Notes under the pieces: model-generated | Told to the model about the DNA's origin: nothing | The model's database searches: none | Seen by the model: only the letters and a program-made list of their open reading frames with translations | Virus record (IMG/VR): IMGVR_UViG_3300036770_001519 | Coordinates: 3,671 to 67,670 of that record | DNA from: a virus | Direction: 5' to 3' (one strand) | Length of the DNA: 64,000 nt | Part shown: one piece after another, positions 1-64,000 of the stretch | Layout of the letters: each line of letters begins with the position of its first letter | Numbering within the stretch: position 1 is the first letter of the stretch | Made by a program: the position numbers and the translations under genes

Positions 1-639
1 CTAAGCACCGCTGGTCTTCTAGACCCCAAGATGATTGAGGTAATGATCGAAGCCAGCAAGGATACAGCAAACTATACAGACGGTCTTCTGGACGTACAGA
101 AGCTATTCCTGTGGGCAGGAGATTCTCCAGAAAGAATCGAAGCCATCAACAGAATGGGTGCCTACATCAATACCACAAGCCGTCAGACAAACACAGATCC
201 AACCCTGCTGGATCTACGAATCAACCAATCAGCCTATGCCAAGGCATTTGGCGTATTCATGCAGTTCCTACTCAGCCACTCTGTACAGGAGATCGGACGT
301 AGACGCAGATACTCCACTGCCAACTACGGTAAGCACCTAGCTGGCATAATGATCATGGAAGCCCTTACCTACAGTCTAGCCCGTCAGAAGGAAGACGATA
401 AGTGGATATGGGAAGAAGCCCAGGAAAAGCCAATAGACGTAACCCTACGTCTAATGACTGGTATGCCAATGCTTGGCTCCTACCAATACCTAGGCAGTCT
501 TATTCGCCAAATCCTACAGGGAGGATATAACGTAATGCAAGGAGATGAATTTGGTAGAGTACGTCTACCCGATCTCTTCTCTGCACCAGCTGAGAACATT
601 CCTAACAAGGGTTGGGAAGTATTCAGAGACATGTTATAA
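1..639 (+). CDS. C-terminal fragment of a large internal virion (gp16-like) protein, 5'-truncated by the window
   Basis: Frame is open from base 1 (LSTAGLLDPK-MIEV...) to TAA at 637-639. Helical with hydrophobic segments, and last gene before the non-coding region. May be the end of the ORF starting at 55395 if the contig is circularly permuted (inference). Confidence 0.55.
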   Translation, partial: LSTAGLLDPKMIEVMIEASKDTANYTDGLLDVQKLFLWAGDSPERIEAINRMGAYINTTSRQTNTDPTLLDLRINQSAYAKAFGVFMQFLLSHSVQEIGRRRRYSTANYGKHLAGIMIMEALTYSLARQKEDDKWIWEEAQEKPIDVTLRLMTGMPMLGSYQYLGSLIRQILQGGYNVMQGDEFGRVRLPDLFSAPAENIPNKGWEVFRDML

Positions 640-14892: not shown

Positions 14893-14896
14893 TCAT

Positions 14897-32287: not shown

Positions 32288-32932
32288 ATGGGATATCTAT
32301 CAAAGCTTGATGCAGTTAATATGATGATGCTTAGTGCTGGGGAAAGCCTGGTGGCTGACCTACAGGAAGCATCGGGCATCGACACAGGCATAGCAGAATT
32401 CCTGCTTGACCAATACAGCATGGAGCATCAGCTCCGTGGAATCGCAGAAAACAAGATAGTCAAGAAGGTAAGACCAGACGAGAATGGTCACATTCTACTT
32501 GGCTATCCAAACAACGACTACCTTGGAGTGATCGAAGCATCGCTGCTATCGTCCCACTACAATGAAGAGAGAATGTACATTCGCGCACGTGCAACCGAAA
32601 CCAATCCACCTCGCCTATTTAATATGACAGACGAGACAGACGTTTGGGAGGACGAGGAATACCATGTCTCCATCACGGCATTGCTTAGATGGGAACAGCT
32701 TGACACGACAACCCAACGTGCAATACTTGGAAGTGCAATGCGGAAGTACCAGCTTCTAACCCAAGGTGACAGAACACTTGATGCTGTTCTTGCTCAGGAT
32801 GAAATGCTCAGTCGTATTCGTGCACGTTCAAACGACATCACGGACAAGAAGAGAAACATCCTGATGAACTCAGACGCAGCCAACAGATGGCCTTACTTTG
32901 TAAATAGAAGACTCTGGAATGGAGGCTTCTGA
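32288..32932 (+). CDS. Tail tubular protein A (gp11-like)
   Basis: LDAVN.M....GE N-terminus; AAGGA RBS. Confidence 0.85.
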   Translation: MGYLSKLDAVNMMMLSAGESLVADLQEASGIDTGIAEFLLDQYSMEHQLRGIAENKIVKKVRPDENGHILLGYPNNDYLGVIEASLLSSHYNEERMYIRARATETNPPRLFNMTDETDVWEDEEYHVSITALLRWEQLDTTTQRAILGSAMRKYQLLTQGDRTLDAVLAQDEMLSRIRARSNDITDKKRNILMNSDAANRWPYFVNRRLWNGGF

Positions 32933-38974: not shown

Positions 38975-38986
38975 GAGGAGATATTG

Positions 38987-47678: not shown

Positions 47679-49349
47679 ATGAAAGTACCAGAAGAAGTAC
47701 TTGAGGATTTCAGGAACCATTTGTTCTTCTCCTTCAAGTATCTAGGACTCGGGGAACCTTCTCCCCTGCAATATGCAATTGCAAACAAGATCCAGCACGG
47801 ACATCGGGACTTCCAGCTTCAGGCGGGAAGAGGAGCTGGAAAGTCAACCATCATGGCGGTGTTCGCCAGCTGGTTATTACTAAAGGATCCTGACACGACG
47901 ATCATGGTTGTTTCGGCAGGTGCCGACAAAGCCATCAAGTTCATCTCGCAGGTCAGGCAGGTTCTAAGCGTGGTCCCCTACATGGGACATCTAACCCCAC
48001 GGGACTTCGATAAGGACAACGCATTTGGATTTAACGTCGCTGCAAGGACCAAGAAGGGTCAGGATCTGTCCTGCTACGCCAAGGGCGTTACAGGTCAATT
48101 AACTGGCTCCCACGCGGACTATATCCTGCTGGATGACATTGAGATCGAAAAGAACTCGGACACGCCCTCAGCCAGAAGCAAGCTGCTTGACAGGCTGACG
48201 GAACTTGAACAGATCAGAAACCCCGTCGAGCATGGAAGAATCATCTTCCTTGGTACATACCAGAGCACGGATTCGATCTACCTTAGGTTACCATACCCAA
48301 TCGTCAAGTTCCCAGCGGTGATGCCAGACCCAGACATTGAAAGCCAGATGCTTCATGTGGATGAATATATCCTCAACATGGATGCAGAACCTGGGTTCTC
48401 CGTGGATCCAATGAGATTCCCGCAGCACGTTCTTGACGAACGTCTTGCCAAGATCGGACCACGGCACTTTGCCCTGCACTATCTGCTGGACCCAACCCTA
48501 AGCGATGCATCCAAGTATCCTCTGAGATTGGAAGATCTCATTGTGATGGATGTTCCAGTCGGTGTGTTTCCAGAGAAGGTCGTATGGGCTAGGGGAACAC
48601 CACTGAAGATACCGACACACGGTCTTAACAACGACTTCATGTATGCACCAATGTGGAAATCACCCACCATGGTCGAGTACAACGAGACTGTTGTGTTCGT
48701 TGATCCCTCTGGTAGAGGTGCCGACGAGACGGCTGTGTGCGTTGCATCGTTCGTCAACGGATACGTTGTCGTTCATGCACTGGTCGGTCTTGAGGGTGGA
48801 TACGACAGTACAACCCTACTGAAGATTGCAAAGCTTGCAAATGCATACGATGCAAGCAGGATCATGGTCGAATCCAACTACGGTGATGGCATGTTCTCGT
48901 CATTGCTAAGACCAATAGTCGCATCTGCCTGTGGCAGAGTAGGCATAGATGAGTTCAAGGTAAGCGGAAACAAGGAGAGAAGAATCCTTGATACGCTTGA
49001 ACCGATCATGTCCCAGCACAGGCTCGTATTCGACACGTCGGCTATCAAGGACAAGGAGAATCAGATCCAGATTACAAGAATGCAGGAAAGACGCGGCGCA
49101 CTCAAGCACGATGACCGCATCGATATTCTTGCAAGCGCGGTAAAGAACTGGTCTGAGGAACTTGTAATTGATCCTGATAGGTTGGTGGAAAGAAACAAAG
49201 AACGAGAACACCAGAATCTAGTCAAGGACTGGATGGGAAACAAGAGAATATCCGTACTACTTGGAGACAGGTATTACGGTCAAAACGAACTTACAAACAC
49301 CCCCAAGAAGCGGGGTCATAACGTATTGGACAACTACTACAGGAGATAA
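47679..49349 (+). CDS. terL: Terminase large subunit (gp19-like)
   Basis: AGRGAGKS Walker A, GQLTGS.AD...DDIE, DPSGRG.DET, ESNYGDGM, HDDR.D. Confidence 0.96.
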   Translation: MKVPEEVLEDFRNHLFFSFKYLGLGEPSPLQYAIANKIQHGHRDFQLQAGRGAGKSTIMAVFASWLLLKDPDTTIMVVSAGADKAIKFISQVRQVLSVVPYMGHLTPRDFDKDNAFGFNVAARTKKGQDLSCYAKGVTGQLTGSHADYILLDDIEIEKNSDTPSARSKLLDRLTELEQIRNPVEHGRIIFLGTYQSTDSIYLRLPYPIVKFPAVMPDPDIESQMLHVDEYILNMDAEPGFSVDPMRFPQHVLDERLAKIGPRHFALHYLLDPTLSDASKYPLRLEDLIVMDVPVGVFPEKVVWARGTPLKIPTHGLNNDFMYAPMWKSPTMVEYNETVVFVDPSGRGADETAVCVASFVNGYVVVHALVGLEGGYDSTTLLKIAKLANAYDASRIMVESNYGDGMFSSLLRPIVASACGRVGIDEFKVSGNKERRILDTLEPIMSQHRLVFDTSAIKDKENQIQITRMQERRGALKHDDRIDILASAVKNWSEELVIDPDRLVERNKEREHQNLVKDWMGNKRISVLLGDRYYGQNELTNTPKKRGHNVLDNYYRR

Positions 49350-49351: not shown

Positions 49352-50014
49352 ATGCCCTTTATTGTAGGCGGTTTAGCAGCAGCTAGTTCTATCATGTCTG
49401 GTATTGGCGGCGCATCACAGAGCAAGGCAAATGCCATTGCAGCCAGGATGCAGCAGGACCAGCAGAACTTCCAGAATAAATGGCAGAATGAAGCTCAGAA
49501 TAGAAACCTACTGAGACAATGGGAGGCTCAGTATTTCATCAACAAGCAAATTGAACGAGGCGCAAACCAACAGCTCACGATGGGCAAGGTCTACGCCAGA
49601 GACTCCTATAAGAATGAAGCATCGCTTCTATCAAAACAAACAAGACAGGCAAACAATGCATTTCTTGGCTCCGTAAGTGCCAAAGGAATGTCGTTGGATT
49701 CTGCTTCTGCAAGAGCACTCCTAAGACAAAGTGTCGAGGAGTCCCAGACAATCAGCAGAACAATGAGAACAAACTTTGAAAACCAGATGCGTGATCTTGA
49801 GACAAACTATCAGAATGTTATTTCTGGCAGAGATCTCAATGTACCAGAACAGCAGACATTGCTTACCAGCAAGGCTGTTGTTGCAGATGCATCTTCAAGC
49901 ATGCTTATGACTGGTATTGCTACTGGTCTACTTAGCGGAGCCTCAGCTGGTATTGGAGCTTATAGCGAATACGGCTGGGATAAGTCGGTATCAGGAAGGC
50001 TATCTGGAAAATAA
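49352..50014 (+). CDS. Internal virion protein (gp14-like)
   Basis: Ala/Gly-rich hydrophobic ends, Gln-rich coiled middle, ~220 aa; first gene of the ejection-protein block. Confidence 0.65.
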   Translation: MPFIVGGLAAASSIMSGIGGASQSKANAIAARMQQDQQNFQNKWQNEAQNRNLLRQWEAQYFINKQIERGANQQLTMGKVYARDSYKNEASLLSKQTRQANNAFLGSVSAKGMSLDSASARALLRQSVEESQTISRTMRTNFENQMRDLETNYQNVISGRDLNVPEQQTLLTSKAVVADASSSMLMTGIATGLLSGASAGIGAYSEYGWDKSVSGRLSGK

Positions 50015-50016
50015 CA

Positions 50017-51006
50017 ATGCTAAATACTGATAAACTAAACAAGCTGTATAAACTGGCTACTGGTAATAAATCAGAACAAGCAACACCAAAGAGCAAGGAT
50101 AGACTAAAGCTTGACAAGGCAGAGAAAAGCCTTAGAAGCTATAGAAGCGCATACTCAGATCCCGTAGATGCGTGGTCCAAGTGGGTTGCAGAACAAGATC
50201 AAAACATCGATGCAGACAACGCAGATGATGTTTGGAACATGGCTGAAAAAGAGTTTCCTGGTTCTCAGGAACAAGCAAGAGATCAGATTCGAAATCAGAT
50301 TAGATCACGAATCTCGTCTAACGATCCATCTATACGAGAACAGCAGCTTAGAAACACCATGATTAAATCACCATCGTGGTTGAATCAAGAACTTGAGGAA
50401 GAACTAAGGACCGCGTCTACAGTCTCTTCCAATCAGAACTTATTCAAGTCAAAGTCTGTATACCTAAAATCTCTTGAGCAAAAACTTGGAAAGTTTAACT
50501 TCCAGGAACTTGACCCAGACGTTCCAGCTGATGTTCACGTCATGGAAGCTGTAAAGCTTGAGGCACTTGGTCTTCTGGATACTGCAAAGATTGTTAATGG
50601 AAGATTTGTTGTCATGGGTAAAGGCGGCTCAATTCAGCCAGCCTTCTCCGTAACACAAGAAGCAGAGCTGTCTGGAGAACTCAACACGGAATCTCCAGAG
50701 ATACAGATGATTATGCAGCTAGCTCCTTCCATTGTAAAGAAGTACGTGGAACCAGCCATGCAGTCAACTCAGGGAATTATGTCCATGGAAAACAGGGCAT
50801 CAAGAGGTGCTGCGCTTCAGATGCTTCGGGGAGGATCTCTTCCCGTTGATCGCTGGGGTGAGGCACTGTCCCTACTAAATGAAAATCAGGGTGCTGGAAT
50901 CAACGAAGGCATAGCTGGACTTGCTGAACAGAACCCAAACATGAACGAAGAAGATGCTGCCAAGTACAGCATGGATATCATTAGTAATTACGGAGGTATG
51001 GTTTGA
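50017..51006 (+). CDS. Probable internal virion protein
   Basis: Helical 329 aa ORF within the ejection-protein block. Confidence 0.55.
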   Translation: MLNTDKLNKLYKLATGNKSEQATPKSKDRLKLDKAEKSLRSYRSAYSDPVDAWSKWVAEQDQNIDADNADDVWNMAEKEFPGSQEQARDQIRNQIRSRISSNDPSIREQQLRNTMIKSPSWLNQELEEELRTASTVSSNQNLFKSKSVYLKSLEQKLGKFNFQELDPDVPADVHVMEAVKLEALGLLDTAKIVNGRFVVMGKGGSIQPAFSVTQEAELSGELNTESPEIQMIMQLAPSIVKKYVEPAMQSTQGIMSMENRASRGAALQMLRGGSLPVDRWGEALSLLNENQGAGINEGIAGLAEQNPNMNEEDAAKYSMDIISNYGGMV

Positions 51007-54000
51007 GTAGAATTGAAACACAAGGACCACAGGCGTTCCTCATGCCTTCGCAGAAGCCAGCTCTATATCAGGAAAGTGCAACGATCTTTCCTCAGCCTAG
51101 AGTTGACATAGCCGAGGGCATCGACATCGGTGCTATTGGCAAGGCTGCATATGGTTTGGGTGCAGAGATCGTAGATGCAACAACAAAGTATAGATTTAAT
51201 AAGACTCAAACCGCACTTGATTCCTATACCATTGCATCAGAGGCAGCTCTAAAAGCTTTTGCGGACAATGGACAATTCGACAAGTACAAGCAAGAGCAAG
51301 AAAACTACCGAAAGCAAGTAAGAGAACTTCTTGGCTTTGATCCAGAAAAGGACGAGCCATTTGGAAACCAGCAACAAAGACTAAAGGCAAGTGCAACAAA
51401 GGCAATAGCAACCTTTGATAATAACCTTGGAGTTGCTCAGGGAGAATACGAGCAACTGGTAGAGCTTGATACATTTGAATCAATGGCAAATAAGCTTGAG
51501 GTTGAACTACAATTACAACCAACAGCTGAAGATAGAATTAGATACATCAATGAGACAATGCGACCAGGAATAGCTGGCGTGTTTAAGACTAGTTTTGGAT
51601 CTGATATCTTTACGCTTGATCCAAAATTACCAATGTCTAAGCAAAAAAGAGCATTGGCAAGAACCATAGAGGCTGCTTGGCTTAAGCTTCAAAACGAAAT
51701 TGACAGATCTGAAAATGAAATAGCCAATAGAAAAGAAGATAAGATTGTGTTTCCAGAACTTGATACCAATCAAGCAAGAAACAACATTAAAATAGGAAGA
51801 GATAACGTATCAAGTGCAAGTCAGGCACTTGATCTTTTACGTGACGCACTTCCAGGTATTAAAAAGGATGACATACCTCTTAGTTCCTTACCACAGGATC
51901 AACAAGTAGCTATAAATTCAGCTGGTAAAAGCGTTGCATCTGCTCTTAACTATTATAGAAGAGCGGTTGGTGATTTGCTTACACAAGCTTGGGAAATTAA
52001 CAGCGGTCCCATGGGTCCACTGCTTCCTTTTGAGGATAGTCCCTATGCCGAAGTAGATCCACTAAGCGATGAGGCACTGACTATTATTGCAGACTCACCA
52101 GGCGTAAAGCCTGAAGACATGAGCGAGCTTACACAGTTTAGAAAAGAACTAAGAGATTTTGAATTCTCGGCAATGAAAAGCGTTGTGGGTGTGCAAACCA
52201 GCATACTAGACGCTGCTATTGAAAAAAGAAAAAGAATTGCACAGGGTCTATTTGAGCAGACTTCAGCAAGGGTTGCTCTTATTGATCGTGACGCAGCAGT
52301 AAATCCAGAAGCGGCTACACTTGAAAGAGAGCGAATATCACAGGAGTTTGAAGCTCAACTTACAGCACTTCTTTCAAACGCATCTCCATACAGTCAGTCT
52401 GATTTTCTAGCTAACTTCAGAAAAAAGAAGATAACATCTTCTACAGACTTAATAATGGCTGTAAGAGAATCCGTTCCACCAACATTCAGTCTATCCGTTT
52501 TTGGAAACCTAATGGACAGCCGACTGGATTCAACTCCTAGATTCAGGGAAGAGTTTAATACATTCCTTGATTTTAACATGCGGCTTCAAAAGCAAATCTA
52601 TGGCGATCAAAAAGCAACCATAGGATCTGCACTAGACGCAACAAGAAGACAGTCTGAAAAGTTTTTAAAGGACCAAGAAAAACGAAGAAGACTTTTAAAC
52701 ATAATAGCATACGAACAGGGTGGAACAAAGGAAACTTTAGAACCTGAAAAAGTAACTCAAGCTGAAAAAAGAGAAGCTGCGTTTCTTGCTATTCAGATGA
52801 AACTTCCAGCTGGTTCCAGCTTGTATGATGACAATGGAAACCTAAAGGAACTTTCCGTTATATCGGAAGAACTCAGCAGGGGCAACCAATCAGTTCCTCT
52901 TCCTCTTTCGCTGCTGATGGAAACACCATACTGGCAGCACATGCTTTCTGATGTGCAGAATTCAAAAACACCAGAAGACACCCTAAAGAGGCTTTTTGCT
53001 CCATTCATCAGTGGTCCAGAAGGTGGTGGTGGAATAAGCTGGGATGATATCAAGAGATCCAATACCTATACCCTGAGATCACCCGATATCTCCGATAATG
53101 CTTCTGACGCTATTATGGAGGGCTTGAAGTCTTCCAACCCAGGAAGAACCCAAGCAACAATGGCAACTTTTCTAATGTATCCAGAGGATACTAGAAAGCA
53201 GTTTCTTGCTAGACTTGATACTGCTATTGAAGCGGAAACAGATCCCCTTACCAAACATTCCTTAAGTATTCGTAGGGCAAGATTAACAGCCTTTAACAAC
53301 ACATATAAGAATGAGAACCCATTTGAGTTTGTTAAAAACGAAATTAATGTAATTCCAGATGAGCAGGTTGTTCTATACGATAGACTAAAGAGAACACTAA
53401 CAGGGTTAGCTGGTGGTCGTATTTCTGAAGCTCAAAAGGAAGGTATTGAAAAAGCAATATCAGAAGGAAGAGCTACACAAAAGTCTGAAGAGCTTGCAGA
53501 ACTTCAAAGACTAATGCCAATGTTTGCCTCTGTATATGAAAATATTCAGATTGGAAACGGTACTGAACTTTCAGACGATGGCAAAACAACTGTAGAAGAT
53601 CGCTTTAGAAAACTATTGTCTGATCCTTCAGATGAAGAACTATTAGACAGAAGAACTGCTGCTAGTATTGTTGATCAGGTAATACTTGATGAATACTTTG
53701 AATCTCGCTGGGCGCATCCAGCATTAGATCCTAACTCCGATGATTTCTCAGACATTTTAACAAAACGAGTAAACGATAAACTCTCATCATTTGCGTGGAA
53801 AACACGTGTTCTTGATCCAAACTTTGGAAATACAAAAGCATCTAAGCCACGTGAAAAAACAACAATGCCATCTCACATCTCTACAAGAGGTGGTGTCGAT
53901 GGATTGTTTACCACCGAACAGGCAGTAATGTCCTCTAACCCGCTTGTAATGGGTTTTGCGGATGACATGACTGCAAAGACTGTGGTTGGTCAGTTTCTTC

Positions 54001-55328
54001 CAGCAAATGCTGAAGCAACTGCGGCAATAAAAAGCATGCCAAACCAACACGCAGCTCTTGCAGCTGTAGCAGCAGCTAGTAATATTCCACCTTATGTGGT
54101 GGGCATTTCAAGAGACAGCCCAGCAAAGATGGCTTACTATCTTGCAGAGGCTGCATTGAATGGAAAAACAGATGCAGCTGCAATACTTGCAGCACAGGCT
54201 ACTCTTTCCATGATGCCAGAAGTATCGTCAGAAGACGATGCGAGAAAGAAGGCTGCATCTCTTGGAGCAAGAATACGCTCGCAAATTCTTGATGGTACTT
54301 TAAAGATGGAGACTGAGGCCCATCCCTCGTTCATGAGTGAAGATAGTCTTGTTCCAACCTATGTACTCTACGTAAACGGAAAGAAGGTTGCATCCATGCA
54401 ACCAAATTCCAACAGCGTTACAGAGAACCTCAAGGACAATCCAGTATATGTCGAGAGACTTAAGAAGACATCTTCAAGAGAAATATCAGACATATACAAC
54501 AGTGATTCTTTTACGGCTGACAAGGAGCAAGACTTCTCCATGCCAACAAAAAGAGACATGCTTGTAAAAGATTGGTTGATGGCACAGGAAGAACCAAACC
54601 TTCTTATCAGGCCTTATATCCACAGCGATACCGCAACATTCTCACACAACCTGTGGGATGAAGCGTGGGCTTTTAGAAAGAAGACCATGCCAGATGGTAC
54701 TGTTGTGGTTGAGAAGGTAAAGCAGATAAAGCAATATAAGAAGGAAGACGGTTCCTTTAGCTCTACTCCACGCTGGGCTGACTATACCGAGGTATACGAT
54801 CCAGCACTATATGGTGGCGTAGAAAGAAAGCGATTTAGAACAAGCGAAACATCGTCACGTCTTAAGTTTGTAGAATCGCCAGGTCTTCCACTACACAGAC
54901 CAGTTCTTCTTGAGACAAGAAGACCTGAAAGATATCTTGATGATCCAAACATTGCCACTGGAGAATCGCTTGTGTACAGTCCAGAGAGACTTGCAGAAGA
55001 CGAGCAAAACCTGTTGATGCTTGAAGAACCAAGCAACGTCAGGGAAATCTTTGTAAATACCAGAGGCAATAGACGATATTCATCCGAGTTTGAAAATCTT
55101 GGTAAGAAGGATGAATCCATCAATAGACTGTTGAATTCCGATGACACGACCCTAACGGTTGCAGAAGTATCGGAAGACACAAGAGACTTCACAAGGTTTG
55201 TTTCGACCTTTGTCAAGTTCCAAGATCCACTGACGAAACAACTGAAGATAATGCGATATACCACAATGACGGCTGGTCCATGGAAGCAATCCTATGATCC
55301 AATCATTGTATACTCTGCGGATGAGTAA
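51003..55328 (+). CDS. Large internal virion protein (gp15-like position)
   Basis: 1441 aa helical ORF; GGAGG RBS; position between gp14-like and gp16-like genes. Confidence 0.65.
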   Translation: MSRIETQGPQAFLMPSQKPALYQESATIFPQPRVDIAEGIDIGAIGKAAYGLGAEIVDATTKYRFNKTQTALDSYTIASEAALKAFADNGQFDKYKQEQENYRKQVRELLGFDPEKDEPFGNQQQRLKASATKAIATFDNNLGVAQGEYEQLVELDTFESMANKLEVELQLQPTAEDRIRYINETMRPGIAGVFKTSFGSDIFTLDPKLPMSKQKRALARTIEAAWLKLQNEIDRSENEIANRKEDKIVFPELDTNQARNNIKIGRDNVSSASQALDLLRDALPGIKKDDIPLSSLPQDQQVAINSAGKSVASALNYYRRAVGDLLTQAWEINSGPMGPLLPFEDSPYAEVDPLSDEALTIIADSPGVKPEDMSELTQFRKELRDFEFSAMKSVVGVQTSILDAAIEKRKRIAQGLFEQTSARVALIDRDAAVNPEAATLERERISQEFEAQLTALLSNASPYSQSDFLANFRKKKITSSTDLIMAVRESVPPTFSLSVFGNLMDSRLDSTPRFREEFNTFLDFNMRLQKQIYGDQKATIGSALDATRRQSEKFLKDQEKRRRLLNIIAYEQGGTKETLEPEKVTQAEKREAAFLAIQMKLPAGSSLYDDNGNLKELSVISEELSRGNQSVPLPLSLLMETPYWQHMLSDVQNSKTPEDTLKRLFAPFISGPEGGGGISWDDIKRSNTYTLRSPDISDNASDAIMEGLKSSNPGRTQATMATFLMYPEDTRKQFLARLDTAIEAETDPLTKHSLSIRRARLTAFNNTYKNENPFEFVKNEINVIPDEQVVLYDRLKRTLTGLAGGRISEAQKEGIEKAISEGRATQKSEELAELQRLMPMFASVYENIQIGNGTELSDDGKTTVEDRFRKLLSDPSDEELLDRRTAASIVDQVILDEYFESRWAHPALDPNSDDFSDILTKRVNDKLSSFAWKTRVLDPNFGNTKASKPREKTTMPSHISTRGGVDGLFTTEQAVMSSNPLVMGFADDMTAKTVVGQFLPANAEATAAIKSMPNQHAALAAVAAASNIPPYVVGISRDSPAKMAYYLAEAALNGKTDAAAILAAQATLSMMPEVSSEDDARKKAASLGARIRSQILDGTLKMETEAHPSFMSEDSLVPTYVLYVNGKKVASMQPNSNSVTENLKDNPVYVERLKKTSSREISDIYNSDSFTADKEQDFSMPTKRDMLVKDWLMAQEEPNLLIRPYIHSDTATFSHNLWDEAWAFRKKTMPDGTVVVEKVKQIKQYKKEDGSFSSTPRWADYTEVYDPALYGGVERKRFRTSETSSRLKFVESPGLPLHRPVLLETRRPERYLDDPNIATGESLVYSPERLAEDEQNLLMLEEPSNVREIFVNTRGNRRYSSEFENLGKKDESINRLLNSDDTTLTVAEVSEDTRDFTRFVSTFVKFQDPLTKQLKIMRYTTMTAGPWKQSYDPIIVYSADE

Positions 55329-55394: not shown

Positions 55395-58300
55395 ATGTCA
55401 GGTATTGATCCATTTAAGCTTCTCCAAGATGTGTTTGAATCAAACAAACAGCTTGCTTCGGAGCGAGATCCAGATACAAAACCACTTTTTGCACAGTATG
55501 CTGGACTAGAAAACAGCATTTCAGAGTCGGCAGTACAACCTACGCTAGCCGCACAACGTGCAGAGAGAGCACAGTTTGATAGAGAATACGTTGGCTTAAG
55601 CACTCTTAAGGCATTTGATAATCTTAAATTCAACGTTGTAGATGACAACGGTTCGCGGTTTAATCGCGGCTACTCAGCAATGAAGGATACCGTACAGACG
55701 GCATCTTCGCAGGGTTGGGGTGAACGAAATATCTTTAGAGAGAGACAGCGTTTAAACATGTCGAAGGGACAGGCTTCTGGTTTCATCAAGACATCCGATG
55801 AAATGGGAAGCTGGAGAGATAGAAGAGAAGGAATCTCACAATGGTACGATGGTGTAGTAGAGCACTTTGAAAAGTGGTTCCACACTACCGAGCTTGAGGG
55901 AGATTACCAGAAACTCAAGTGGCAGCTGTCACAACCAGACAGTAGCTGGACAGAGGCTAGAAAGTATGAAGCTCTTTCCAATTGGCAAGAGCAGAACAAG
56001 GAAGCCTATGACTACATAAGACGGGCTGGCGTTGACTTCAATACGTTTGTCGGACCAACGGTAAACGAAACTGGATTCAATGTAGCTATGATGGAAGCCG
56101 CAAAGCAAGCGGTTCTAAATCGAAGAATGCGTCTTTGGGAAGAAGACAACGGTGCAGTACTGAAGTTTGTTGCATCGGCTGCAGAAAGTTTCAAGGATCC
56201 TGCCATGATGCGGGATATCCTTCTTACTACAGCCCTAACAATGGGACTTGCAACGCCACAGGTCATAGGCACAAGACTAGGTGTCAACGGTCTTCAGGTT
56301 TCCCAGTCAGCACTGGCTTCAGCACGTCTGTTGCAGTTGACAGGACCAATGACTGGTCTTATTGAAGGACCAGTATATGCAGCTTTGCGTGGCACCATTC
56401 TGAATCAAGCAGGACGCAGGGCAACCGATACGATGGTTGCCCGTGGTCTTGCTATGTTTACTGAAGGTGCTGTTGCGGGAACTGTTGCATCTCTTGCAGA
56501 TCAACGTGATGACTACGAGTGGAGATCACTTGTATTCAAGGATACCGACAAGGTGTTCAAGTATGACTTCAAGAACGCAATTACAGAGGGTGTCTACAGC
56601 GGTACGGGAGCAATGACCATGCTTGGTCTAATGCGCTTCGGTCTTGGTGCCCTTGGTGACTTCAAGTACTACAGCAAGGGTGACTGGAACAACTGGGGAC
56701 GAAGCATTGCCAACTCCCTTGACACATGGGCAGAAACAAAGGAAGGTCTTACCGTATTCGGAGAACAACTAAGCGATGGTCGCGGAATGTTCTTTGGAGA
56801 TCTTATCGACAGATACATGAAGGGTAAGGACGGTAGGGATTTTGCAAACATAATGTTGAATGGAAGCCGTCTATTTGGTCGGCTTGATCCAGTAATTGCT
56901 GGACGCTTGAACTTGGATACAAAAGAAGTTCTTGAAGTAGCTGAGGAATTTGAAAAGATAACTGGAGTGGCTGGTGAAGCTGCAATGAGACGCCTTGATG
57001 GTGTCGATCCAGATCTAAGCAATACCTTCATGCTAATGCTTAACAAGAAGTTCCTTGAGTCCCAGGATCTAAGCTACCCAGAAGTAGCAGGTCTTCTAAA
57101 GGACTTCTCAAGCTATTCGTCTGGAAAGGGAATGCTTCCTCTTCCAGAGACTGGCGAAGGTAGATTCCTAAGAGCCGTGAAAAAGGATCCAGCAAGAACA
57201 TCGCAGCAACTCAGACGCTTGCTTGACCTCAGAATTCTCGACAAGAAGCTGAACAAGTATGGTGTCTCAAGTGTTGTAGCTCTGGCAGATGCAGAGAATG
57301 CCCTTGGTCGCAGACTGGATCTCATGGAAGACAACGACTATAGATCCTATAGAATGGCTGCTGCATTTGCCGAGGGTTCACAAAAGGAACAGGCAGTTGT
57401 CTCTTCGCTATCAACGCTACTTAGTACAACTGATGAAATGGTAAACATTGGCGGCAGAGAAATTCCAACAGAGGTTGCACGGCAAGCCGTAAGAACCTCA
57501 CTTGGTCTTGACGGTCGCAAGGAATTGCTTTACCTGAACGACGCTGGAGAAGCCGACAGAGCCACATTCATGGTTATGATCGACCCAGCAACCAACGAGG
57601 TTCTTCGAACTAGACGGCAGCTTACCGTTGGCAAGGATGGATCTCTTGAGATCTCATTCGCTGCCAAGGAAAATGCTTCCTATAAGCCAGAGAATATAAT
57701 CTCAACGGTCGAGTTCAAGGAAAAGATAGAGGAAATAAACAACAAGATCCGCGAAGGTTGGCTTGATTGGACAAAGAAGAATATCAAGAAGGCCATCGAA
57801 GGAGTTAAGGATCCAGTAAAGAAGAAGGAAATTGAAAAGACGTTTGACGATCTATTCAACGAGGGTAAGGAACCAACGATTGAAAACATCTCGCGTATCT
57901 TCAGCATGAACAAGACGGAGGCAACAGTCTCCCAGATAATCATGCGTTCTCTTGGTTACGATCCAAATGAAAAGATGTTGAGAATTGCAAGAGGTTCCGT
58001 AGACGAGGGTGCAACTGGAAACATCATTCTTGCTGGAACACAGGCACTTATCAACGCAACAAAGGCATCCGACATCGGAACAGTCGCACATGAGATGGGA
58101 CACTATAATAGGTTCATCTTTGGTCAAGACACCGAAGACTCACGTGCAGCTCGTCATGCCATTGGAATTACCGATGACATGTGGGATAAGTTCAAGGACT
58201 GGTGCGGTGTAAAGGATGGCAACTGGACACTAGCGGCAGAGGAGAAGTTTGCAAACGGCTGGGCTTATTACATCAGAAATGTAATGCAAGGCAATGGCAA

Positions 58301-61300
58301 GGCTCCAACTACCTCTATCCAGCGGCTCTTCCACAGACTTGGAGATCACCTAGGAAACGTAGGAGAAAACTTCAAGACTCAAGAAGCACTTGAAGCTGGT
58401 CTTGCTCTTTCACCAGTTGCAGAAGAAGTGTTTGAAAAGCTACTGATCAGAAGCAATGACAAGATCAGCGAACTATTTGACATCAGCTATCATAGAATCT
58501 TCAAGAGACTTCCAGCCGACAAACGAAATGAAATCGGCGTTGAGATTCTTGGAGAGATGGCGTGGAATGACTATAAGGCAAAGCTGGAAAAGTCAACGGC
58601 AGAAGCAAGAGTCAAGACTGATCCTATACTTGCAGGAGCAGCTGCTCCGCGTGTAAGGGTATCTGATGTTGTCAATGACATTGCAGCAGTAGCCGCAGGA
58701 ACAGCTACAAAGAAGACAATCAGAGAAGCACTAAAAGCTGGCTTGACCAAAGATCAAATTTTAAGTAAGCTTAAAGAGTTTGGTGCTCTTACAGCTAAAT
58801 CACTTGGGACTTATCTTCCAAAAGATCGTGATGCAACACCATATACTTTTGTAAAAACATACAAGCATAGTAAGTTACCATTTCACGCTGATACAACACT
58901 AGAAGTTATAGATGAAAAAATAGCTAGAGAGGGTAAAGACACTAAAATAAATTATGTTGTTGATACCCGTATTTCACTTACTGGTTCAGAACTAGAAATA
59001 CTTCCAATTTTTTACTCTATTAGTTTAGAAGATCTACGAGCAGAGTTTGTAAGACGGTCTGGAGAAAAAACAGAAGCTCCAGAAGTTTCAGAAACCGAGA
59101 TTCTAGAGGCTATTGATGCCTTGAGCACCTCAACTGGCTTCGTAGATTCCGATGGTCTTGCTGTAGAGCTAACATCAACAGAAGCTGTTGTAGCCACAAT
59201 GCGGGCTGTAGAAGCTGCTGAAACAAGAGCTGTAGCTGAAAGAGCTGCGGCAACAGCAGACGAACTATCGACAAGAACCGATGAGGAAATGCTTGGATAT
59301 TCTCCAGACACTTCCGTATCTACGGCTGGTGTTGAGGTTCTGTCTGCTTCTGAAATCAATGTTGAGACTGAGGTACCAACACCAGCAGCACTGGGTGTAA
59401 CAAATACACTTGCACGTCTTACAACAGTAAGAAACAATGCAGAAAGAGTATCTCAGGAGCTTCCTGAAACAGCGCGAAGACAGCTGGCTGCGTTTGCATC
59501 ACTGGCTGTTTCAAACCCAGAAAGAACGGCTGAGCTTGTAAAAGCTTGGCGTGAGTATCAGACTAATAACGTACAGACCGCTCCAAGGGCTGCAGAGGAA
59601 TATCTTGTTGCAGAGATGCGAAACATCATTGCACGGGATACAATTGAAACCCTTACTGGAATGTCGGATGAGGCATTGACCCAGTTTGTTAGATTGCGAA
59701 AATTCGTTGAAGAGTTTTCGGATACTCCAGAGTATGACAAGCTTATTATCAACAATGATTTTGAAGGCTTCATTGAAAAGCATCCAGAATTCTCAAGAGA
59801 ACAGCTTCAACTATACTTGCTTGGTCTTTCTCACATTCAGTCTCAGCTTTCACGTGCTGAGTTCATGTCGGCATCTCGTACCCTTAGAAGGGATGCTGCA
59901 GCATACGATGCCGCAGTTGCGTATGTAAAGGAAAACGAAGAGGCATATGCCAAGGCTCTTGAAACAAAGAGCGATGCTGACAAGGATCTGATCAAGAAAG
60001 TAAAGGCAAGCAAGACCATAATCACAAACTATGAGAACGCACAAAAGCGTGTTCAGATGGGTGTGCTTGGCAACGAGATCGTTGACCAGGGAGTGGTTGA
60101 GTCCGTAACAAAGACAAGAACATTCGACATTGAAAACCTTGCCAACTACCGCAGGGTCTACGATATCTACCAAGGTGTCGAGGACGTGCTGAACAACAAG
60201 GGTATTTCGGTTGACATCAGTGTGCTTGATCTTCTTGAGGAGTTCGACAAAGACAACAAGCTTATCAGCAGCATTGCCGAAAGACTTGGCGTTTCCGATG
60301 AGGAAAACCAAAGAGAGGCTGTGCTTGAGTGGGCTTCAGGAAAAGACGAGTACAACAACAACAAGTTCTCCAAGGAGAATCTTGCCTCAGCCAAGGCTTA
60401 TGTACGAGGTGTAGTAAAGAAGCTGAACGAAAAGCAGCAGTCAAAGGGAACAAAGAAGCAGGTTGGCAGCTTTGAGGTTGTATCGGGAGGAACCACTACG
60501 GATCTATCCGCTGGTCTTACCTCCACCAACCGAGAGACAAAGACGCTAAGCAAGCTCGCTGCAAACAACGAAAGCAATCTTCTTCTATTTACCACCTCTG
60601 TTCTCTATGAAAGACTAAAGAACAATGGAGAGGTTGAGCTTGCAGAATACCTTGCTGCAAGACGGGCAACTCACTGGTTGCCTGGAAACAGAGAAGACAA
60701 TATTAGGTCTGCATTTGAGCTTCGTCAAAACGAACTTGGCTTGAATGCACTGACCAAAGCAAGCATCGACGCACTTGAGCAAAAACTTGTCAGAAGAATT
60801 GGAGAGTTTGCACGGGAGCTTAAGACGCTTGGTCTTGGTGAAGCAGCCGAGATCATAACAACAACAAAACTTGGAATGGACGAGACGGTTGTATTCAACC
60901 AAGGTCCGATTGATCTACAGTTGGAACAGCTTGCCGAGAAGGTAGCCCTGTCAATGGATGTAACACCATCCCGTCTTATTCCAGTTGAAAGACAGTTGAT
61001 GTCTGCAATGGCTAATGCCCGTAGACTGGAAGAAGAAGAAATGTCAATGGACTTCAAGAATCTCATTCTTGATATTCAGATTGGAGAGATCAAGACAGCC
61101 AAGGAGCTTATCCAGCGTCTTGCATCCTTCAAGAACGACGCACAGGGAGTTGCGAAGCAGATTGCTAAAAACGACTTCCTTCTTTCTGTTCTTGATTCGA
61201 CAACACTCATGCTTGTTCTTGACAAGTATGCTGTTGCTGCATATAGTCCAAGACACAACATCTTGGCTATCAATCCATTTCAGGCACAACATCCAAACAC

Positions 61301-64000
61301 CTTGCTGCATGAGGTATATCATGCAATGACATCGGCTACTATCTTCAACATGCTTGGAGAAAGAAACCTAGATGTCGGTGAAGACTATTTATCAAGTCTT
61401 GTTGAGCTGCGTGAAACAGTTAGTGAAGACCTTAGAATACTTATTGACATGTACCTAAAGTACGTCAATGAAAAGGTTCCACCAGGTCTGCGCGGAGCAA
61501 TTAACGATACCAAGATGTTTGAGGAAATGATGGCAGCTAATCCCGAAGCTGGTAGATACTACGCGGGATTCTCTCTAGATGAGTTTGTTGCCGAAGGTCT
61601 TACAAATCCATCTGTGGTCAAGGATCTACTTACGTTGGATTCCGACGATATCGTAGATACTGGTGCATACAGGGACATGATAGAGGCAACCCTAAGAATG
61701 GTTGGAATCAAGCCAACGGAAGAAACATTCTCAGTTGCATCTGGAAAGGCTTTTACAAACCTGTCAGCAACCACGATGAACATTGCAAATGACCTTGAGT
61801 CTGCGTTTGGAATCATCGGTATGGTTCATACCTTGGAAGATCTTCTTCCAACATCTCCATCCTACTCATCAGCTGACATTATGTTCAGAATGCGTGGGTC
61901 GCAGATTCAACCAATCTCTGCGTTTGTACATGCTGGAAAGGATCCTAGAAAGACTGCTGTTGTATACAACCAGGCTTTCGTAAATCCTGCTGAAAAGGAA
62001 CAGTTAAAGCTAAGAGCTGATCTTTCAGCTGCAAAGGGCCGTCTTCACAAGAAGTATAAAATCTTCAATCAAGACTCCGTACATCTGGAAAAACTTGAGG
62101 AAAACAAGTTTACGGTTGTTGGCGGTCAGCTTGGATCGAACCAAGCAAAACAACTTGTAGATGAATCTGGAAAGAAGTTCTACCTAAAGAAAGCAAAGTC
62201 AAAAAGCCATGCTGAAAACGAGATACTTGCACAAGTACTCTATGGTGCACTTGGTATCAAGTCGGTAAAGTCCGTAAAGGTAACTCAAGATGCCTTCGGA
62301 ATGTCTGGTCCACTGCTAATGTCATCGTGGCTGGATAATGTTGTTTCATTTGACAAGAACAACCCAGACCACATCAAGGCTGGGCATGAGGTATTCATGG
62401 CATCGGCTTGGCTAGCTAACTGGGATGTAGCTGGTGGTCCAGGATCTCCATACGACAATACGGATGGCAATGGTGTAATCCTAGATACTGGTGGATCTCT
62501 TAAGTGGAGAGCCATGGGTAGTCCTAAGGGTACTGCATTTGGTCCAGAAGTTACGGAGCTTGACAAATTCCTAGATCCATATACAAACCCAACGGCAGCA
62601 AACATGTTTGCAAACCTAACGGATGCAGACAAGCTAGAACAAGCGGCTAATCTTGTTGGAACAATGACCAATAGTCTAATCAAGGATCTTGTGTTCACCA
62701 TTATAACGGATAATGCAGAAGCCAAGGAAATTTCCAACATACTGATTGCGCGAAGAAACTATATTTCCAATAAGTTCCTTGGCACAATAAAGAGTATTGA
62801 AGTTTCAAAGGAGAATGCCGACTGGTCTATTAAGTCAATCATTGATCAGGAAGAACCAGATCTTGCTGAAATTCCAGCAAAGGAATCTTCTCTATATCAA
62901 GAAATTGCTTTAAATGATGCAGTAACTAATTTGTTTTATAAAGTATATCCTACCGTTAACACATCTATGTTAAACGAGGTTCAGGAGTGGGTAGTCAATG
63001 AAGTATTGACAGGATCTGCTTTTAACACCATGTTACTAGCAGTACAAGAAGTTTCTAACGACCTTGAGCCAGGTTGGGTATACAGCGTTGATGTCTTGAA
63101 GAAGAAAATTATCAGTACATTTGATGAACTTATTCTTACAACACCAGTAATAAACTCCGTAAACTCTGTTGTAGAAGATACAGCAGACGGTGCTGCGGTT
63201 GCAATTGAAAATCCACTTGTACCCTTTATTGCAAACAAGATAAAGAATCCAGACTCTAAGTTTAAATGGGAAGATTGGCACTCTTTGAATCCCAAGCTAC
63301 CACAGTCATTATGGGAAAATCTATTCGATTCTTATAATCTTTCATTTGACGATGTGTGGAAAACACATCTTTACGATCTACTCCAAAAAATGGACGAAGA
63401 TAGTAGAGTCGATGCACAAACCAAAGCAGCCGAATATGCAGTATGGTTTGCAGCTAAAGGATACATTATACCAGAAGCTACCGCGCTATTTCTCACCATC
63501 AAAAATCAGTGGCCTGCTGTAGCCGCATACACTTCATATATGAAAGATGATGAAGTTATTTTTGACTGGACAAGTAACTGGACTATATACTCACCTACTA
63601 GTGATGATCTTCTTACTTTCTTAAATAGTAATCATGGCGATAGCCTTGATATATCAGAAGAATTTAAGACATTTGGAATTAGCTCAGAAGCTCAGGTTAA
63701 ACTTACTGGTTTATGTTATACTCTTGAAAGTTTAGGTTTTAGTGAACACGGTTGGTCTATAGAAAATTATGTTGCTACGAAAGTAGACAACATTATGATG
63801 TCAAACGAATCTGGAGAATTTACTTCAGATGATTTTAATACTTTAGCTAATGCTTTAAGTCTCCAGTTTACGCTATCAGCTAGTTCGTTGAAGAAGGTAA
63901 TTGATCAAAAGGCTAGTTCTATAGTAGCAGTAGAGGATGCAAATCTTAGTGCTATAAAGCCTTCTGTAGTTTCTGAAAATGCTTTTCAAAAAGCATTTGC
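55395..64000 (+). CDS. Giant internal virion / polyvalent protein (>2868 aa, 3'-truncated) with two zincin motifs and a kinase-like domain
   Basis: AAGGA RBS and ATG 55395. No in-frame stop (absent from the ORF track; frame spot-checked). HEMGH 58089-58103, HEVYH 61308-61322 with DEFVAE 61578-61595, kinase motifs ~62100-62770, all in frame. Confidence 0.85.
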   Translation, partial: MSGIDPFKLLQDVFESNKQLASERDPDTKPLFAQYAGLENSISESAVQPTLAAQRAERAQFDREYVGLSTLKAFDNLKFNVVDDNGSRFNRGYSAMKDTVQTASSQGWGERNIFRERQRLNMSKGQASGFIKTSDEMGSWRDRREGISQWYDGVVEHFEKWFHTTELEGDYQKLKWQLSQPDSSWTEARKYEALSNWQEQNKEAYDYIRRAGVDFNTFVGPTVNETGFNVAMMEAAKQAVLNRRMRLWEEDNGAVLKFVASAAESFKDPAMMRDILLTTALTMGLATPQVIGTRLGVNGLQVSQSALASARLLQLTGPMTGLIEGPVYAALRGTILNQAGRRATDTMVARGLAMFTEGAVAGTVASLADQRDDYEWRSLVFKDTDKVFKYDFKNAITEGVYSGTGAMTMLGLMRFGLGALGDFKYYSKGDWNNWGRSIANSLDTWAETKEGLTVFGEQLSDGRGMFFGDLIDRYMKGKDGRDFANIMLNGSRLFGRLDPVIAGRLNLDTKEVLEVAEEFEKITGVAGEAAMRRLDGVDPDLSNTFMLMLNKKFLESQDLSYPEVAGLLKDFSSYSSGKGMLPLPETGEGRFLRAVKKDPARTSQQLRRLLDLRILDKKLNKYGVSSVVALADAENALGRRLDLMEDNDYRSYRMAAAFAEGSQKEQAVVSSLSTLLSTTDEMVNIGGREIPTEVARQAVRTSLGLDGRKELLYLNDAGEADRATFMVMIDPATNEVLRTRRQLTVGKDGSLEISFAAKENASYKPENIISTVEFKEKIEEINNKIREGWLDWTKKNIKKAIEGVKDPVKKKEIEKTFDDLFNEGKEPTIENISRIFSMNKTEATVSQIIMRSLGYDPNEKMLRIARGSVDEGATGNIILAGTQALINATKASDIGTVAHEMGHYNRFIFGQDTEDSRAARHAIGITDDMWDKFKDWCGVKDGNWTLAAEEKFANGWAYYIRNVMQGNGKAPTTSIQRLFHRLGDHLGNVGENFKTQEALEAGLALSPVAEEVFEKLLIRSNDKISELFDISYHRIFKRLPADKRNEIGVEILGEMAWNDYKAKLEKSTAEARVKTDPILAGAAAPRVRVSDVVNDIAAVAAGTATKKTIREALKAGLTKDQILSKLKEFGALTAKSLGTYLPKDRDATPYTFVKTYKHSKLPFHADTTLEVIDEKIAREGKDTKINYVVDTRISLTGSELEILPIFYSISLEDLRAEFVRRSGEKTEAPEVSETEILEAIDALSTSTGFVDSDGLAVELTSTEAVVATMRAVEAAETRAVAERAAATADELSTRTDEEMLGYSPDTSVSTAGVEVLSASEINVETEVPTPAALGVTNTLARLTTVRNNAERVSQELPETARRQLAAFASLAVSNPERTAELVKAWREYQTNNVQTAPRAAEEYLVAEMRNIIARDTIETLTGMSDEALTQFVRLRKFVEEFSDTPEYDKLIINNDFEGFIEKHPEFSREQLQLYLLGLSHIQSQLSRAEFMSASRTLRRDAAAYDAAVAYVKENEEAYAKALETKSDADKDLIKKVKASKTIITNYENAQKRVQMGVLGNEIVDQGVVESVTKTRTFDIENLANYRRVYDIYQGVEDVLNNKGISVDISVLDLLEEFDKDNKLISSIAERLGVSDEENQREAVLEWASGKDEYNNNKFSKENLASAKAYVRGVVKKLNEKQQSKGTKKQVGSFEVVSGGTTTDLSAGLTSTNRETKTLSKLAANNESNLLLFTTSVLYERLKNNGEVELAEYLAARRATHWLPGNREDNIRSAFELRQNELGLNALTKASIDALEQKLVRRIGEFARELKTLGLGEAAEIITTTKLGMDETVVFNQGPIDLQLEQLAEKVALSMDVTPSRLIPVERQLMSAMANARRLEEEEMSMDFKNLILDIQIGEIKTAKELIQRLASFKNDAQGVAKQIAKNDFLLSVLDSTTLMLVLDKYAVAAYSPRHNILAINPFQAQHPNTLLHEVYHAMTSATIFNMLGERNLDVGEDYLSSLVELRETVSEDLRILIDMYLKYVNEKVPPGLRGAINDTKMFEEMMAANPEAGRYYAGFSLDEFVAEGLTNPSVVKDLLTLDSDDIVDTGAYRDMIEATLRMVGIKPTEETFSVASGKAFTNLSATTMNIANDLESAFGIIGMVHTLEDLLPTSPSYSSADIMFRMRGSQIQPISAFVHAGKDPRKTAVVYNQAFVNPAEKEQLKLRADLSAAKGRLHKKYKIFNQDSVHLEKLEENKFTVVGGQLGSNQAKQLVDESGKKFYLKKAKSKSHAENEILAQVLYGALGIKSVKSVKVTQDAFGMSGPLLMSSWLDNVVSFDKNNPDHIKAGHEVFMASAWLANWDVAGGPGSPYDNTDGNGVILDTGGSLKWRAMGSPKGTAFGPEVTELDKFLDPYTNPTAANMFANLTDADKLEQAANLVGTMTNSLIKDLVFTIITDNAEAKEISNILIARRNYISNKFLGTIKSIEVSKENADWSIKSIIDQEEPDLAEIPAKESSLYQEIALNDAVTNLFYKVYPTVNTSMLNEVQEWVVNEVLTGSAFNTMLLAVQEVSNDLEPGWVYSVDVLKKKIISTFDELILTTPVINSVNSVVEDTADGAAVAIENPLVPFIANKIKNPDSKFKWEDWHSLNPKLPQSLWENLFDSYNLSFDDVWKTHLYDLLQKMDEDSRVDAQTKAAEYAVWFAAKGYIIPEATALFLTIKNQWPAVAAYTSYMKDDEVIFDWTSNWTIYSPTSDDLLTFLNSNHGDSLDISEEFKTFGISSEAQVKLTGLCYTLESLGFSEHGWSIENYVATKVDNIMMSNESGEFTSDDFNTLANALSLQFTLSASSLKKVIDQKASSIVAVEDANLSAIKPSVVSENAFQKAF

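Follow-up and report, generated by a model that had tools for sequence, protein, structure and literature searches.

The 64,000 nucleotides (nt) of viral DNA considered here, hereafter the window, are bases 3671-67670 of the 67,670-bp IMG/VR virus record IMGVR_UViG_3300036770_001519. Near its 3′ end the window encodes a domain of about 235 amino acids (aa) which, as modelled, has an atypical protein-kinase-like fold, i.e., a fold of the class of CotH, CtkA/HipA, and PI4KII. The domain is internal to the product of a giant gene, and that gene appears to be the last late gene of a T7-like phage. The reading which is favoured here, and in which as a whole I place modest confidence, is that a catalytically intact kinase-like domain, carried by a late giant protein, would be packed into capsids, injected, and then would phosphorylate host proteins. 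Kinase activity is something that I infer from the modelled fold, and the packaging and delivery of the giant protein are plausible by analogy with other phage systems.

Motifs and conservation of the kinase-like domain

A preliminary description of this DNA, made from its letters, had proposed a HipA/PI3-4K-like kinase domain within a virion protein, at positions 62100-62770, and had quoted a series of kinase-like motifs. All of those motifs are present, and in a single + strand frame inside of the giant open reading frame (ORF), as seen upon translation and with key codons checked by hand against the DNA. The proposed limits, furthermore, agree both with the span of homology to other proteins and with the ordered region of the structural model (Table 1).

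That homology, by the E values obtained, is far beyond chance. A HMMER search with aa 2186-2485 of the giant protein as query, against 1.84 billion representatives of clusters formed at 50% identity, yielded 3479 representative proteins at E<=1e-3, with 1993 at E<=1e-10 and 61 at E<=1e-30. Conservation was assessed using an alignment of 169 copies of the domain, consisting of the query along with 168 of the 192 local domain rows from 150 listed hits, i.e., those rows which have independent E values (i-E) of <1e-10 and which cover the core. The proteins concerned share only 32-55% identity.

The Lys, alphaC Glu, catalytic-loop Asp and Asn, and DFG-like Asp picked out by the preliminary description turn out to be the near-invariant residues of this family. 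All five of these core residues (Lys2265, Glu2276, Asp2344, Asn2355, and Asp2364) are intact in the window copy, and each is kept in 166-168 of the 169 copies. Their assignment as catalytic residues is by sequence position along with predicted secondary structure. Near-invariant as well, and present in the window copy, are G2247-S-N of the Gly-rich loop (for which the family consensus is GGQxGSNxGG), H2272, N2275, the AWLANWD block, and D2354. The catalytic-loop equivalent of the window copy contains a 3-residue insert that is common to only 4 of the 169 copies.

Wholly within the kinase-coding segment there is also an antisense ORF of 151 aa (62285..62740, minus strand), but nothing supports it. 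Most likely it is spurious, and it probably arises from the codon usage of the coding strand.

Table 1. Features of the window, with positions given in window coordinates; the kinase-like domain comes first, then the giant ORF, and then other genes.
Feature	Position	Strand	Basis or remark
Kinase-like domain as modelled, aa 2226-2472	62070..62810	+	AF2 (AlphaFold2) model
Homology core, aa 2237-2461	62103-62777	+	HMMER, query residues ~52-276
Gly-rich loop GGQLGSN (G2243-N2249)	62121..62141	+	Between strands 1 and 2 (model residues 14-18, 26-31)
Lys2265 of FYLK (aag), ATP-anchoring Lys equivalent	62187..62189	+	K in 167/169 copies; end of strand 3 (model 36-41)
Glu2276 of HAENE (gag), alphaC Glu equivalent	62220..62222	+	E in 166/169; helix, model 45-60
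Catalytic-loop equivalent, WLANWD (Asp2344) to YDN (Asn2355)	62424..62459	+	D in 166/169, N in 168/169; Asp2344 (gat) at 62424-62426, Asn2355 (aat) at 62457-62459
DTGG, with Asp2364 (gat, 62484-62486) as DFG-Asp equivalent	62484..62495	+	D in 166/169; GG in 165/169 and 167/169
C-lobe family-conserved residues Arg2372, Lys2378, Glu2388, Arg2453	62508..62753	+	R 162, K 167, E 169, R 169 of 169
Giant ORF, N-terminal 2868 codons	55395..64000 (ORF listed as 55395..63998)	+	Open at window 3′ end and at record end
Giant ORF, last 212 codons and stop	1..639	+	5′-open in window
First HExxH (HEMGH, aa 899)	58089..58103	+	Kept at equivalent place in 5/5 full-length relatives
Second HExxH (HEVYH, aa 1972)	61308..61322	+	Kept at equivalent place in 5/5 full-length relatives
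Single-subunit RNA polymerase	8886-11363	+	PHROG match
Deoxynucleoside monophosphate kinase	22399-23142	+	PHROG match
Portal	27542-29140	+	PHROG match
Major capsid protein	30771-32111	+	PHROG match
Tail tube B	32932-35607	+	PHROG match
Large terminase (TerL)	47679-49349	+	PHROG match
Three ORFs of 220, 329, and 1441 aa between TerL and giant ORF	49352..55328	+

Predicted fold

An AF2 model was generated from an alignment (A1) of 16 short family members along with the window segment 62070-62810. The model has a mean predicted local distance difference test score (pLDDT) of 88.9 and a predicted template modelling score (pTM) of 0.88, and is ordered over residues 4-240. It consists, in order, of three strands, the first and second being joined by the Gly-rich loop and the third ending in the Lys; a long, Glu-bearing helix; two strands; helices; the Asp...Asn loop; two short strands (model residues 128-131 and 134-137), with the Asp of DTGG coming immediately after them; and then a helical C-lobe, with helices at residues 163-237.

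Foldseek comparison of this model with the PDB gave 17 matches at E<=1e-3, all with a kinase fold. CtkA of H. pylori was first (E 1.2e-5, template modelling (TM) score 0.56-0.58), and further matches were NahK, CotH, aminoglycoside phosphotransferase, RIO1, VPS34, and HipT. VIA-align, which is independent of Foldseek and was applied to 48,161 representative chains, returned kinase folds for 50 of its best 50 rows. Heading these is CotH of B. cereus (PDB 5jda; Z 15.1, with 219 of 247 residues aligned and a root-mean-square deviation of 3.2), then CtkA (Z 14.7), PI4KII-alpha (Z 12.8 and 12.5), HipA (Z 11.7 and 10.5), MavQ (Z 11.6), Fam20 (Z 11.5), actin-fragmin kinase (Z 11.4), and HipT (Z 10.2), with class I-III PI3K at Z 9-10, WaaP at Z 8.3, and the APH and MPH antibiotic kinases at Z ~8. 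Model and both comparisons all indicate a kinase fold, and the non-kinase fold which the preliminary description had named as speaking against its proposal was not encountered. In terms of narrower affiliation, that proposal holds as a matter of fold, with HipA, CtkA, PI4KII, and PI3K found among the best matches, but does not hold as a matter of sequence membership, whether in HipA_C or in PI3_PI4_kinase, and CotH rather than either is found on top.

Membership in a known family was looked for broadly. The kinase segment has no match in Pfam at E<=1, whether to HipA_C, PI3_PI4_kinase, CotH, or any other family, nor does it match PHROGs or NCBIfam. Searches of PDB sequences with phmmer and with profiles, using the kinase segment as well as A1, found no kinase, and a word-index search found no short relatives of the segment. 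By sequence, that is, the domain belongs to no curated family and is instead a separate family of its own.

The giant gene

The giant gene is interrupted by the ends of the record, with its beginning located at the 3′ end of the window and its end at the 5′ end (Table 1), and with the remaining, C-terminal part found on record bases 1-3670, beyond the window. The first 4309 bases of the record are one open frame that ends at window position 639 (bases 2-4309 are stop-free, encoding 1435 aa). The last 198 nt of the record (window 63803-64000) repeat its first 198 nt with 1 mismatch, an overlap which in translation covers 65 aa and contains a single Leu/Ile difference, with the reading frame continuing across it. 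As the ends repeat and the frame continues, the nominally ‘linear’ record is, judging from these bases, a circular or permuted assembly, of ~67,472 unique bases, which has been cut inside of the giant gene. So joined, the giant protein has a whole length of ~4238 aa.

Comparison with relatives indicates that this gene is real. Alignment with five independent full-length relatives, of 4007-4538 aa, extends through the N-terminal 2460 residues and the kinase-like domain, and takes in the C-terminal 1250 residues as well. Four of them are located on contigs of up to 64-67 kb and the other (P0004) on a single 24-kb contig. At the locus of one relative (L009) the order is the same as here, i.e., a large upstream ORF, the giant ORF, and then small ORFs. 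That the giant ORF might be an assembly chimera was considered but rejected, given five relatives of the same length.

Between the N-terminal and C-terminal parts, alignment among the full-length relatives is poor or absent over aa ~2480-2990 (window ~62830-64000 along with record bases ~200-560), a region which has the appearance of a variable cassette. In the giant ORF, as in the three ORFs preceding it, no transmembrane-like segments were revealed by a Kyte-Doolittle scan. Searches with the giant ORF gave chance-level rows only in Pfam and no match in PHROGs or NCBIfam; the profile of the giant-protein family (A4) had no match among PDB sequences; and aa 1-2185, along with the C-terminal 1435 aa, had no tblastn match in the phage collection.

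Two HExxH motifs precede the kinase-like domain (Table 1), and both are possible zincin metallopeptidase sites. The regions around them match no family in Pfam, nor did a search of the record with PF18818 find any.

A further conserved segment is found outside of the window, on record bases 764-1351 (aa ~3058-3253), and it carries F-[HY]-R-G with an invariant Arg, VA-x-DY, and PH-x-QW. An AF2 model of this segment, from 6 sequences, has a pLDDT of 81. Its best structural matches are nearly all toxins or PARPs of the ADP-ribosyltransferase (ART) fold, and they are weak (at best Z 5.9, for a diphtheria-toxin homologue, and Foldseek E 0.13), with a pre-ejectosome domain of cyanophage A4 (9k3a_B) matching as well, at Z 4.2. 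The segment may be a divergent ART-like domain. Searches by sequence gave no match of the giant ORF to a home-made model of R-S-E ARTs, nothing in the record for PF18762, PF18760, or PF18818 (MPTase-PolyVal and ART-PolyVal thus included), and, by word index, no short relatives of the segment. The ESM Atlas supplied weak leads (ART-PolyVal in 24% of cluster members, score 0.90; LPD22, score 0.87) which are not counted here as evidence.

Genome setting

PHROG scans reveal a T7-like layout, with every large ORF on the + strand. Besides the genes of Table 1, matches were obtained for a Gp2.5-like single-stranded DNA-binding protein, primase/helicase, DNA polymerase, exonuclease, dUTPase, thymidylate synthase, and ribonucleotide reductase, and scaffold, tail tube A, and fibre-like ORFs are found on the + strand as well. 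The major capsid protein is only ~25% identical to its counterparts among cyanopodoviruses, pelagiphages, and roseophages. The source phage is, on this evidence, an uncultured and distant T7-like podovirus of ~67.5 kb.

Following TerL are three ORFs (Table 1) and then the giant ORF, which is the last gene ahead of the small early ORFs that precede the RNA polymerase gene. The three ORFs have no PHROG match, and that of 1441 aa has no tblastn match in the phage collection. T7-like phages require internal core proteins, i.e., equivalents of gp14-16. No genes for such proteins were found in the PHROG scans between tail tube B and TerL. As these proteins are required and none are found elsewhere, the four post-terminase ORFs, the giant ORF included, become by elimination candidate internal-core or ejection proteins.

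The preliminary description had seen no gene for an early kinase such as gp0.7 of phage T7. Consistent with this, there is no + strand ORF of at least 155 aa within 640-8886, a region whose small early ORFs were left unscanned, and likewise a protein-kinase PHROG was matched by none of the 28 larger ORFs to which the scan was limited. A scan for promoters and terminators of window 500-2200 was uninformative.

Two other observations concern the remainder of the genome. A tRNA cluster at 14647-14970, in the replication-gene region, consists of four genes, for Ile(tat), Leu(caa), Lys(ttt), and Arg(tct). An ORF of 1775 aa (38984-44311) has tail-fibre and ‘hyaluronidase’ PHROG matches that are confined to its first ~60 residues, and it probably forms a long fibre or spike whose N-terminus serves as a T7-type adaptor.

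Distribution of the domain family

The family resides almost only in giant phage or prophage proteins, among which ART, portal, MuF, and prohead-protease domains are found as well. Among GenBank phages, tblastn located the domain in 20 records. In the Actinomycetia phage DSL-LC01 it is part of a 3289-aa protein; in ~90-kb phages of Pseudomonas, Aeromonas, and Yersinia it is found in proteins annotated as ‘ADP-ribosyltransferase’; and it is found also in Gordonia phages. The paper on Mecenats66 leaves the protein unmentioned. In Yersinia phage fHe-Yen8-01 the domain is in a 2146-aa protein annotated as ‘ADP-ribosyltransferase toxin ... phage particle associated protein’.

Within IMG/VR, a single peptide pattern identified 496 stretches of which 478 were confirmed. 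For the 80 IMG/VR loci that were kept, the stop-to-stop frame has a median of ~2040 aa (range 645-5865), and 65 of the 80 frames have both ends closed. Hits of 260-300 aa were considered as possible free-standing forms of the domain, but the three that were looked up (P0083, P0085, and P0091) are possibly fragments, their contigs being 912-2965 nt long.

A Pfam scan was made of 27 of the 80 frames, from viral contigs, chosen as complete and non-redundant. ADPrib_exo_Tox was found in 13 of these, Phage_portal_3 in 5, Phage_Mu_F in 4, DUF2213, NUDIX, and ART in 3 each, and Zeta_toxin and Peptidase_S78 in 1 each. Structural look-alikes in BFVD, at TM 0.73-0.83, include proteins labelled ‘Phage portal protein, HK97’ and ‘ADP ribosyltransferase’.

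The association with ARTs was followed using a home-made hidden Markov model (HMM) of R-S-E ARTs, over two rounds. An R-S-E ART is present in 85 of 181 kinase-bearing proteins, and 29 of 108 kinase copies are located <=100 residues from an ART. Many relatives display a kinase-like domain and an R-S-E ART side by side (e.g., P0007, P0009, and P0012), sometimes as two pairs per protein, and a Streptomyces protein of 2491 aa has two such kinase-ART pairs. Such adjacency may indicate a functional dyad.

A narrow pattern, applied to bacterial genomes, returned 165 stretches, with 151 of them confirmed. Carriers include Endozoicomonas (several per genome), Rhodobacter capsulatus, Streptomyces, Nonomuraea, metagenome-assembled genomes of Dehalococcoidia, and others. 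The Endozoicomonas copies are on separate contigs (L090, L103, L106, L110, L112-L115, and L118), and of the 80 loci kept from these bacterial genomes four belong to E. atrinae.

Weighing packaging and injection

Under the favoured reading the giant protein would be a product of late expression, one that goes into the capsid as an internal or ejection protein. From there it would be threaded into the cell, either before the DNA or together with it, as are T7 gp16, the virion RNA polymerase (vRNAP) of phage N4, or T4 Alt. Once within the cell, and before phage gene expression, the domain would phosphorylate host proteins at the expense of host ATP, with Ser/Thr the most likely targets, and would thereby fill the role which in T7 belongs to an early kinase, gp0.7. 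Cutting of the polyprotein into working pieces may be the task of the two conserved HExxH motifs. For metallopeptidase domains of the multi-enzyme phage proteins known as polyvalent proteins, polyprotein processing has been proposed in those passages of PMC5512222 that treat them.

Timing is pertinent here. As the giant gene would both enter and be expressed last in the course of a T7-type infection, its product could have an early role only if it were packed beforehand. This late-gene argument supports the logic of pre-packing rather than amounting to proof of it. Packaging is supported circumstantially as well, at the level of the family, by analogy with those relatives that are fused to portal, MuF, or prohead-protease domains and with the relative annotated as particle associated.

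A number of observations weigh against this reading, and they are conveniently considered along with the alternatives that they favour. To begin with catalysis, the window lineage departs from the family consensus in that the second Gly pair of its Gly-rich loop is lost (Ala-Lys instead), Asp2337 has become Ser, and two short inserts are present. In addition, P0020, one of the five full-length relatives, seemingly lacks the catalytic-loop Asp-Asn in the alignment, or at least may be without that Asn. The domain from this perspective might be a pseudokinase, that is, a structural or binding module of a capsid-internal protein which has kept only the fold. The five core residues nevertheless are kept, here and across the 169 copies, among proteins that otherwise are quite divergent. 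Because such constraint is not expected of a dead enzyme, a pseudokinase would seem to be very improbable.

There is next the question of substrate. Several of the strong structural matches are to lipid or sugar kinases (PI4KII, MavQ, WaaP, and Fam20), and kinase-fold enzymes can catalyse other reactions, or can use lipids or sugars. A packaged and active domain might thereby act upon something other than protein (a lipid, envelope sugar, nucleotide, or small molecule) or might carry out AMPylation, either aiding ejection or disarming a host defence signal. The Z scores given above, for PI4KII-alpha (PI4KIIa), MavQ, Fam20, WaaP, and APH/MPH, point in this direction, as do the invariant residues Arg2372, Lys2378, Glu2388, and Arg2453, which have no assigned role. 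However, protein kinases account for both of the best matches, CotH and CtkA, and for HipA and HipT as well, and the domains that frequently accompany the family are protein-modifying ARTs. A non-protein substrate, or AMPylation, consequently is viewed as unlikely.

Lastly there is packaging itself. For no part of the giant protein was a match found among known virion, core, or ejection proteins (PHROG, Pfam, tblastn against phages, PDB), and the protein has no MuF or portal domain (Pfam). With neither virion homology nor such a domain, the case for packaging is one of analogy and of position. The particle association of the fHe-Yen8-01 protein, too, is a depositor annotation, one for which no supporting paper was found. 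An active kinase-fold enzyme could instead be part of a giant protein that is not packaged, acting late in the cytoplasm in assembly or lysis, i.e., via late phosphorylation of phage or host proteins, or else in superinfection exclusion. The giant protein, unlike many of its relatives, is fused to no MuF, portal, or protease domain, and at 4238 aa it would be a very large cargo for a T7-sized capsid that holds 67.5 kb. But the N4 vRNAP, of ~3500 aa, is packed into virions. The repeated portal, MuF, and prohead-protease fusions within the family, along with the particle-associated relative, point as well to the capsid, and T7-like phages need internal core proteins of which none are seen elsewhere in this genome. 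An unpackaged, late-acting enzyme is for these reasons considered improbable, and packaging along with injection continues to be the favoured reading.

Significance

A kinase within an injected giant phage protein is a prediction that was published in 2017, so in kind is already known (PMC5512222). What is new here, as far as the scans show, is that the family is a different one, that it is much larger, that it is absent from the Pfam, NCBIfam, and PHROGs collections scanned, and that it is found in a T7-like podovirus. In the literature that was searched, supplements and alignment files of PMC5512222 aside, the family is undescribed, and no phage was found for which a virion-delivered protein kinase has been experimentally demonstrated. 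Kinase-PolyVal, the one kinase family to have been predicted for injected polyvalent proteins, is a different family.

If true, then a second family would widen the repertoire by which phages take over hosts immediately upon infection, one that is large, with intact catalytic residues, often coupled to ARTs, and spread among phages of Proteobacteria, phages of Actinomycetota, and uncultured aquatic podoviruses. It would represent also a route by which a T7-like phage lacking a gp0.7 gene might possess kinase activity at time zero. The domain boundaries, along with residues K2265, D2344, and D2364, make for a concrete candidate. The distribution of the family suggests, too, that many giant phage proteins labelled as ‘ADP-ribosyltransferase’ or ‘hypothetical’ may hold an unrecognised kinase domain.

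More expansively, and quite tentatively, the domain could be the first example from a T7-like phage of a large and seemingly undescribed CotH/CtkA/HipA-like family, of at least 3479 clusters at 50% identity. Such a family possibly would serve as a main ‘warhead’ of packaged effectors, often in tandem with an ART, and would allow phages to deliver a preformed kinase along with their DNA, so as to rewire or disarm hosts ahead of any transcription, as a substitute for gp0.7 and perhaps with a role in counter-defence.

Comparison with known systems

HipA is a stand-alone toxin that possesses an N-terminal HipA domain and has a HipB or HipS antitoxin as neighbour. Here, by contrast, the domain is internal to a 4238-aa ORF and is without the HipA N-domain and without an antitoxin gene arrangement. 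For HipA_C (PF07804) the cut-off is 30.5 bits, and four relatives reached 16.4-23.6 bits, over the Gly-loop to helix-C region only. An hhalign comparison of A1 with the single sequence of E. coli HipA gave a probability of 0.2, with 27 columns aligned over the ‘NE’ motif of helix C. The likeness to HipA and to CtkA is seen in the fold, CtkA being the top Foldseek match. CtkA is borne on a mobile element.

PI3_PI4_kinase (PF00454) gave no Pfam match, and the motifs differ, i.e., NWD...YDN and DTGG here versus DRHxxN and DFG in that family. CotH, with its compact C-lobe, is an atypical kinase and is the best VIA-align match of the model, but the identity is only 15%. It furthermore is a stand-alone kinase of bacterial spore coats, whereas the present domain belongs to a giant phage protein. 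In Pfam, CotH is PF08757.

The T7 kinase, gp0.7, is the product of an early gene and is made after phage entry. The role proposed for the present domain is the same, that is, phosphorylation of host proteins at the start of infection, but it is encoded by the last late gene. Nor is there a sequence tie to gp0.7, as the kinase segment has no match of any kind in PHROGs.

Kinase-PolyVal (PF18762) resembles the present domain in its biological setting. In those passages of Iyer et al. 2017 (PMC5512222) that concern it, this is a kinase domain of giant multi-enzyme phage proteins, predicted to be packaged and injected and likened to T7 gp0.7. The family is described there as lacking the whole of the C-terminal subdomain and as occurring mainly in Verrucomicrobia, Chlamydia, and Bacteroidetes. 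Here a helical C-lobe is present, and the taxa are Proteobacteria, Actinomycetota, and Dehalococcoidia along with their phages. PF18762 found nothing in the 67.7-kb record at E<=1 and is not among the 13 families matched by the 27 host ORFs at E<=1e-4. As PF18762 finds nothing, and as the model has a C-lobe which that family lacks, the domain is not a member of Kinase-PolyVal.

Polyvalent proteins, as characterized in the relevant passages of PMC5512222, are giant multi-enzyme phage proteins, often linked to MuF or portal domains, that are predicted to be packed into heads and injected. The architecture seen among relatives of the present domain corresponds to this pattern. In terms of possessing several enzymatic domains, the giant protein has a kinase-like domain that is firm, HExxH sites by motif only, and an ART-like segment for which the match is weak (Z 5.9). 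In terms of being located among virion or late genes, the giant ORF is downstream of portal, capsid, tail, and TerL genes, and on the same strand. T4 Alt and the MuF-fused toxins, in the portions of PMC5512222 and PMC9503650 that take them up, are enzymes packed into heads and injected with the DNA. Their chemistry differs from that proposed here, consisting instead of NAD-dependent ADP-ribosylation, but the logic of delivery would be shared.

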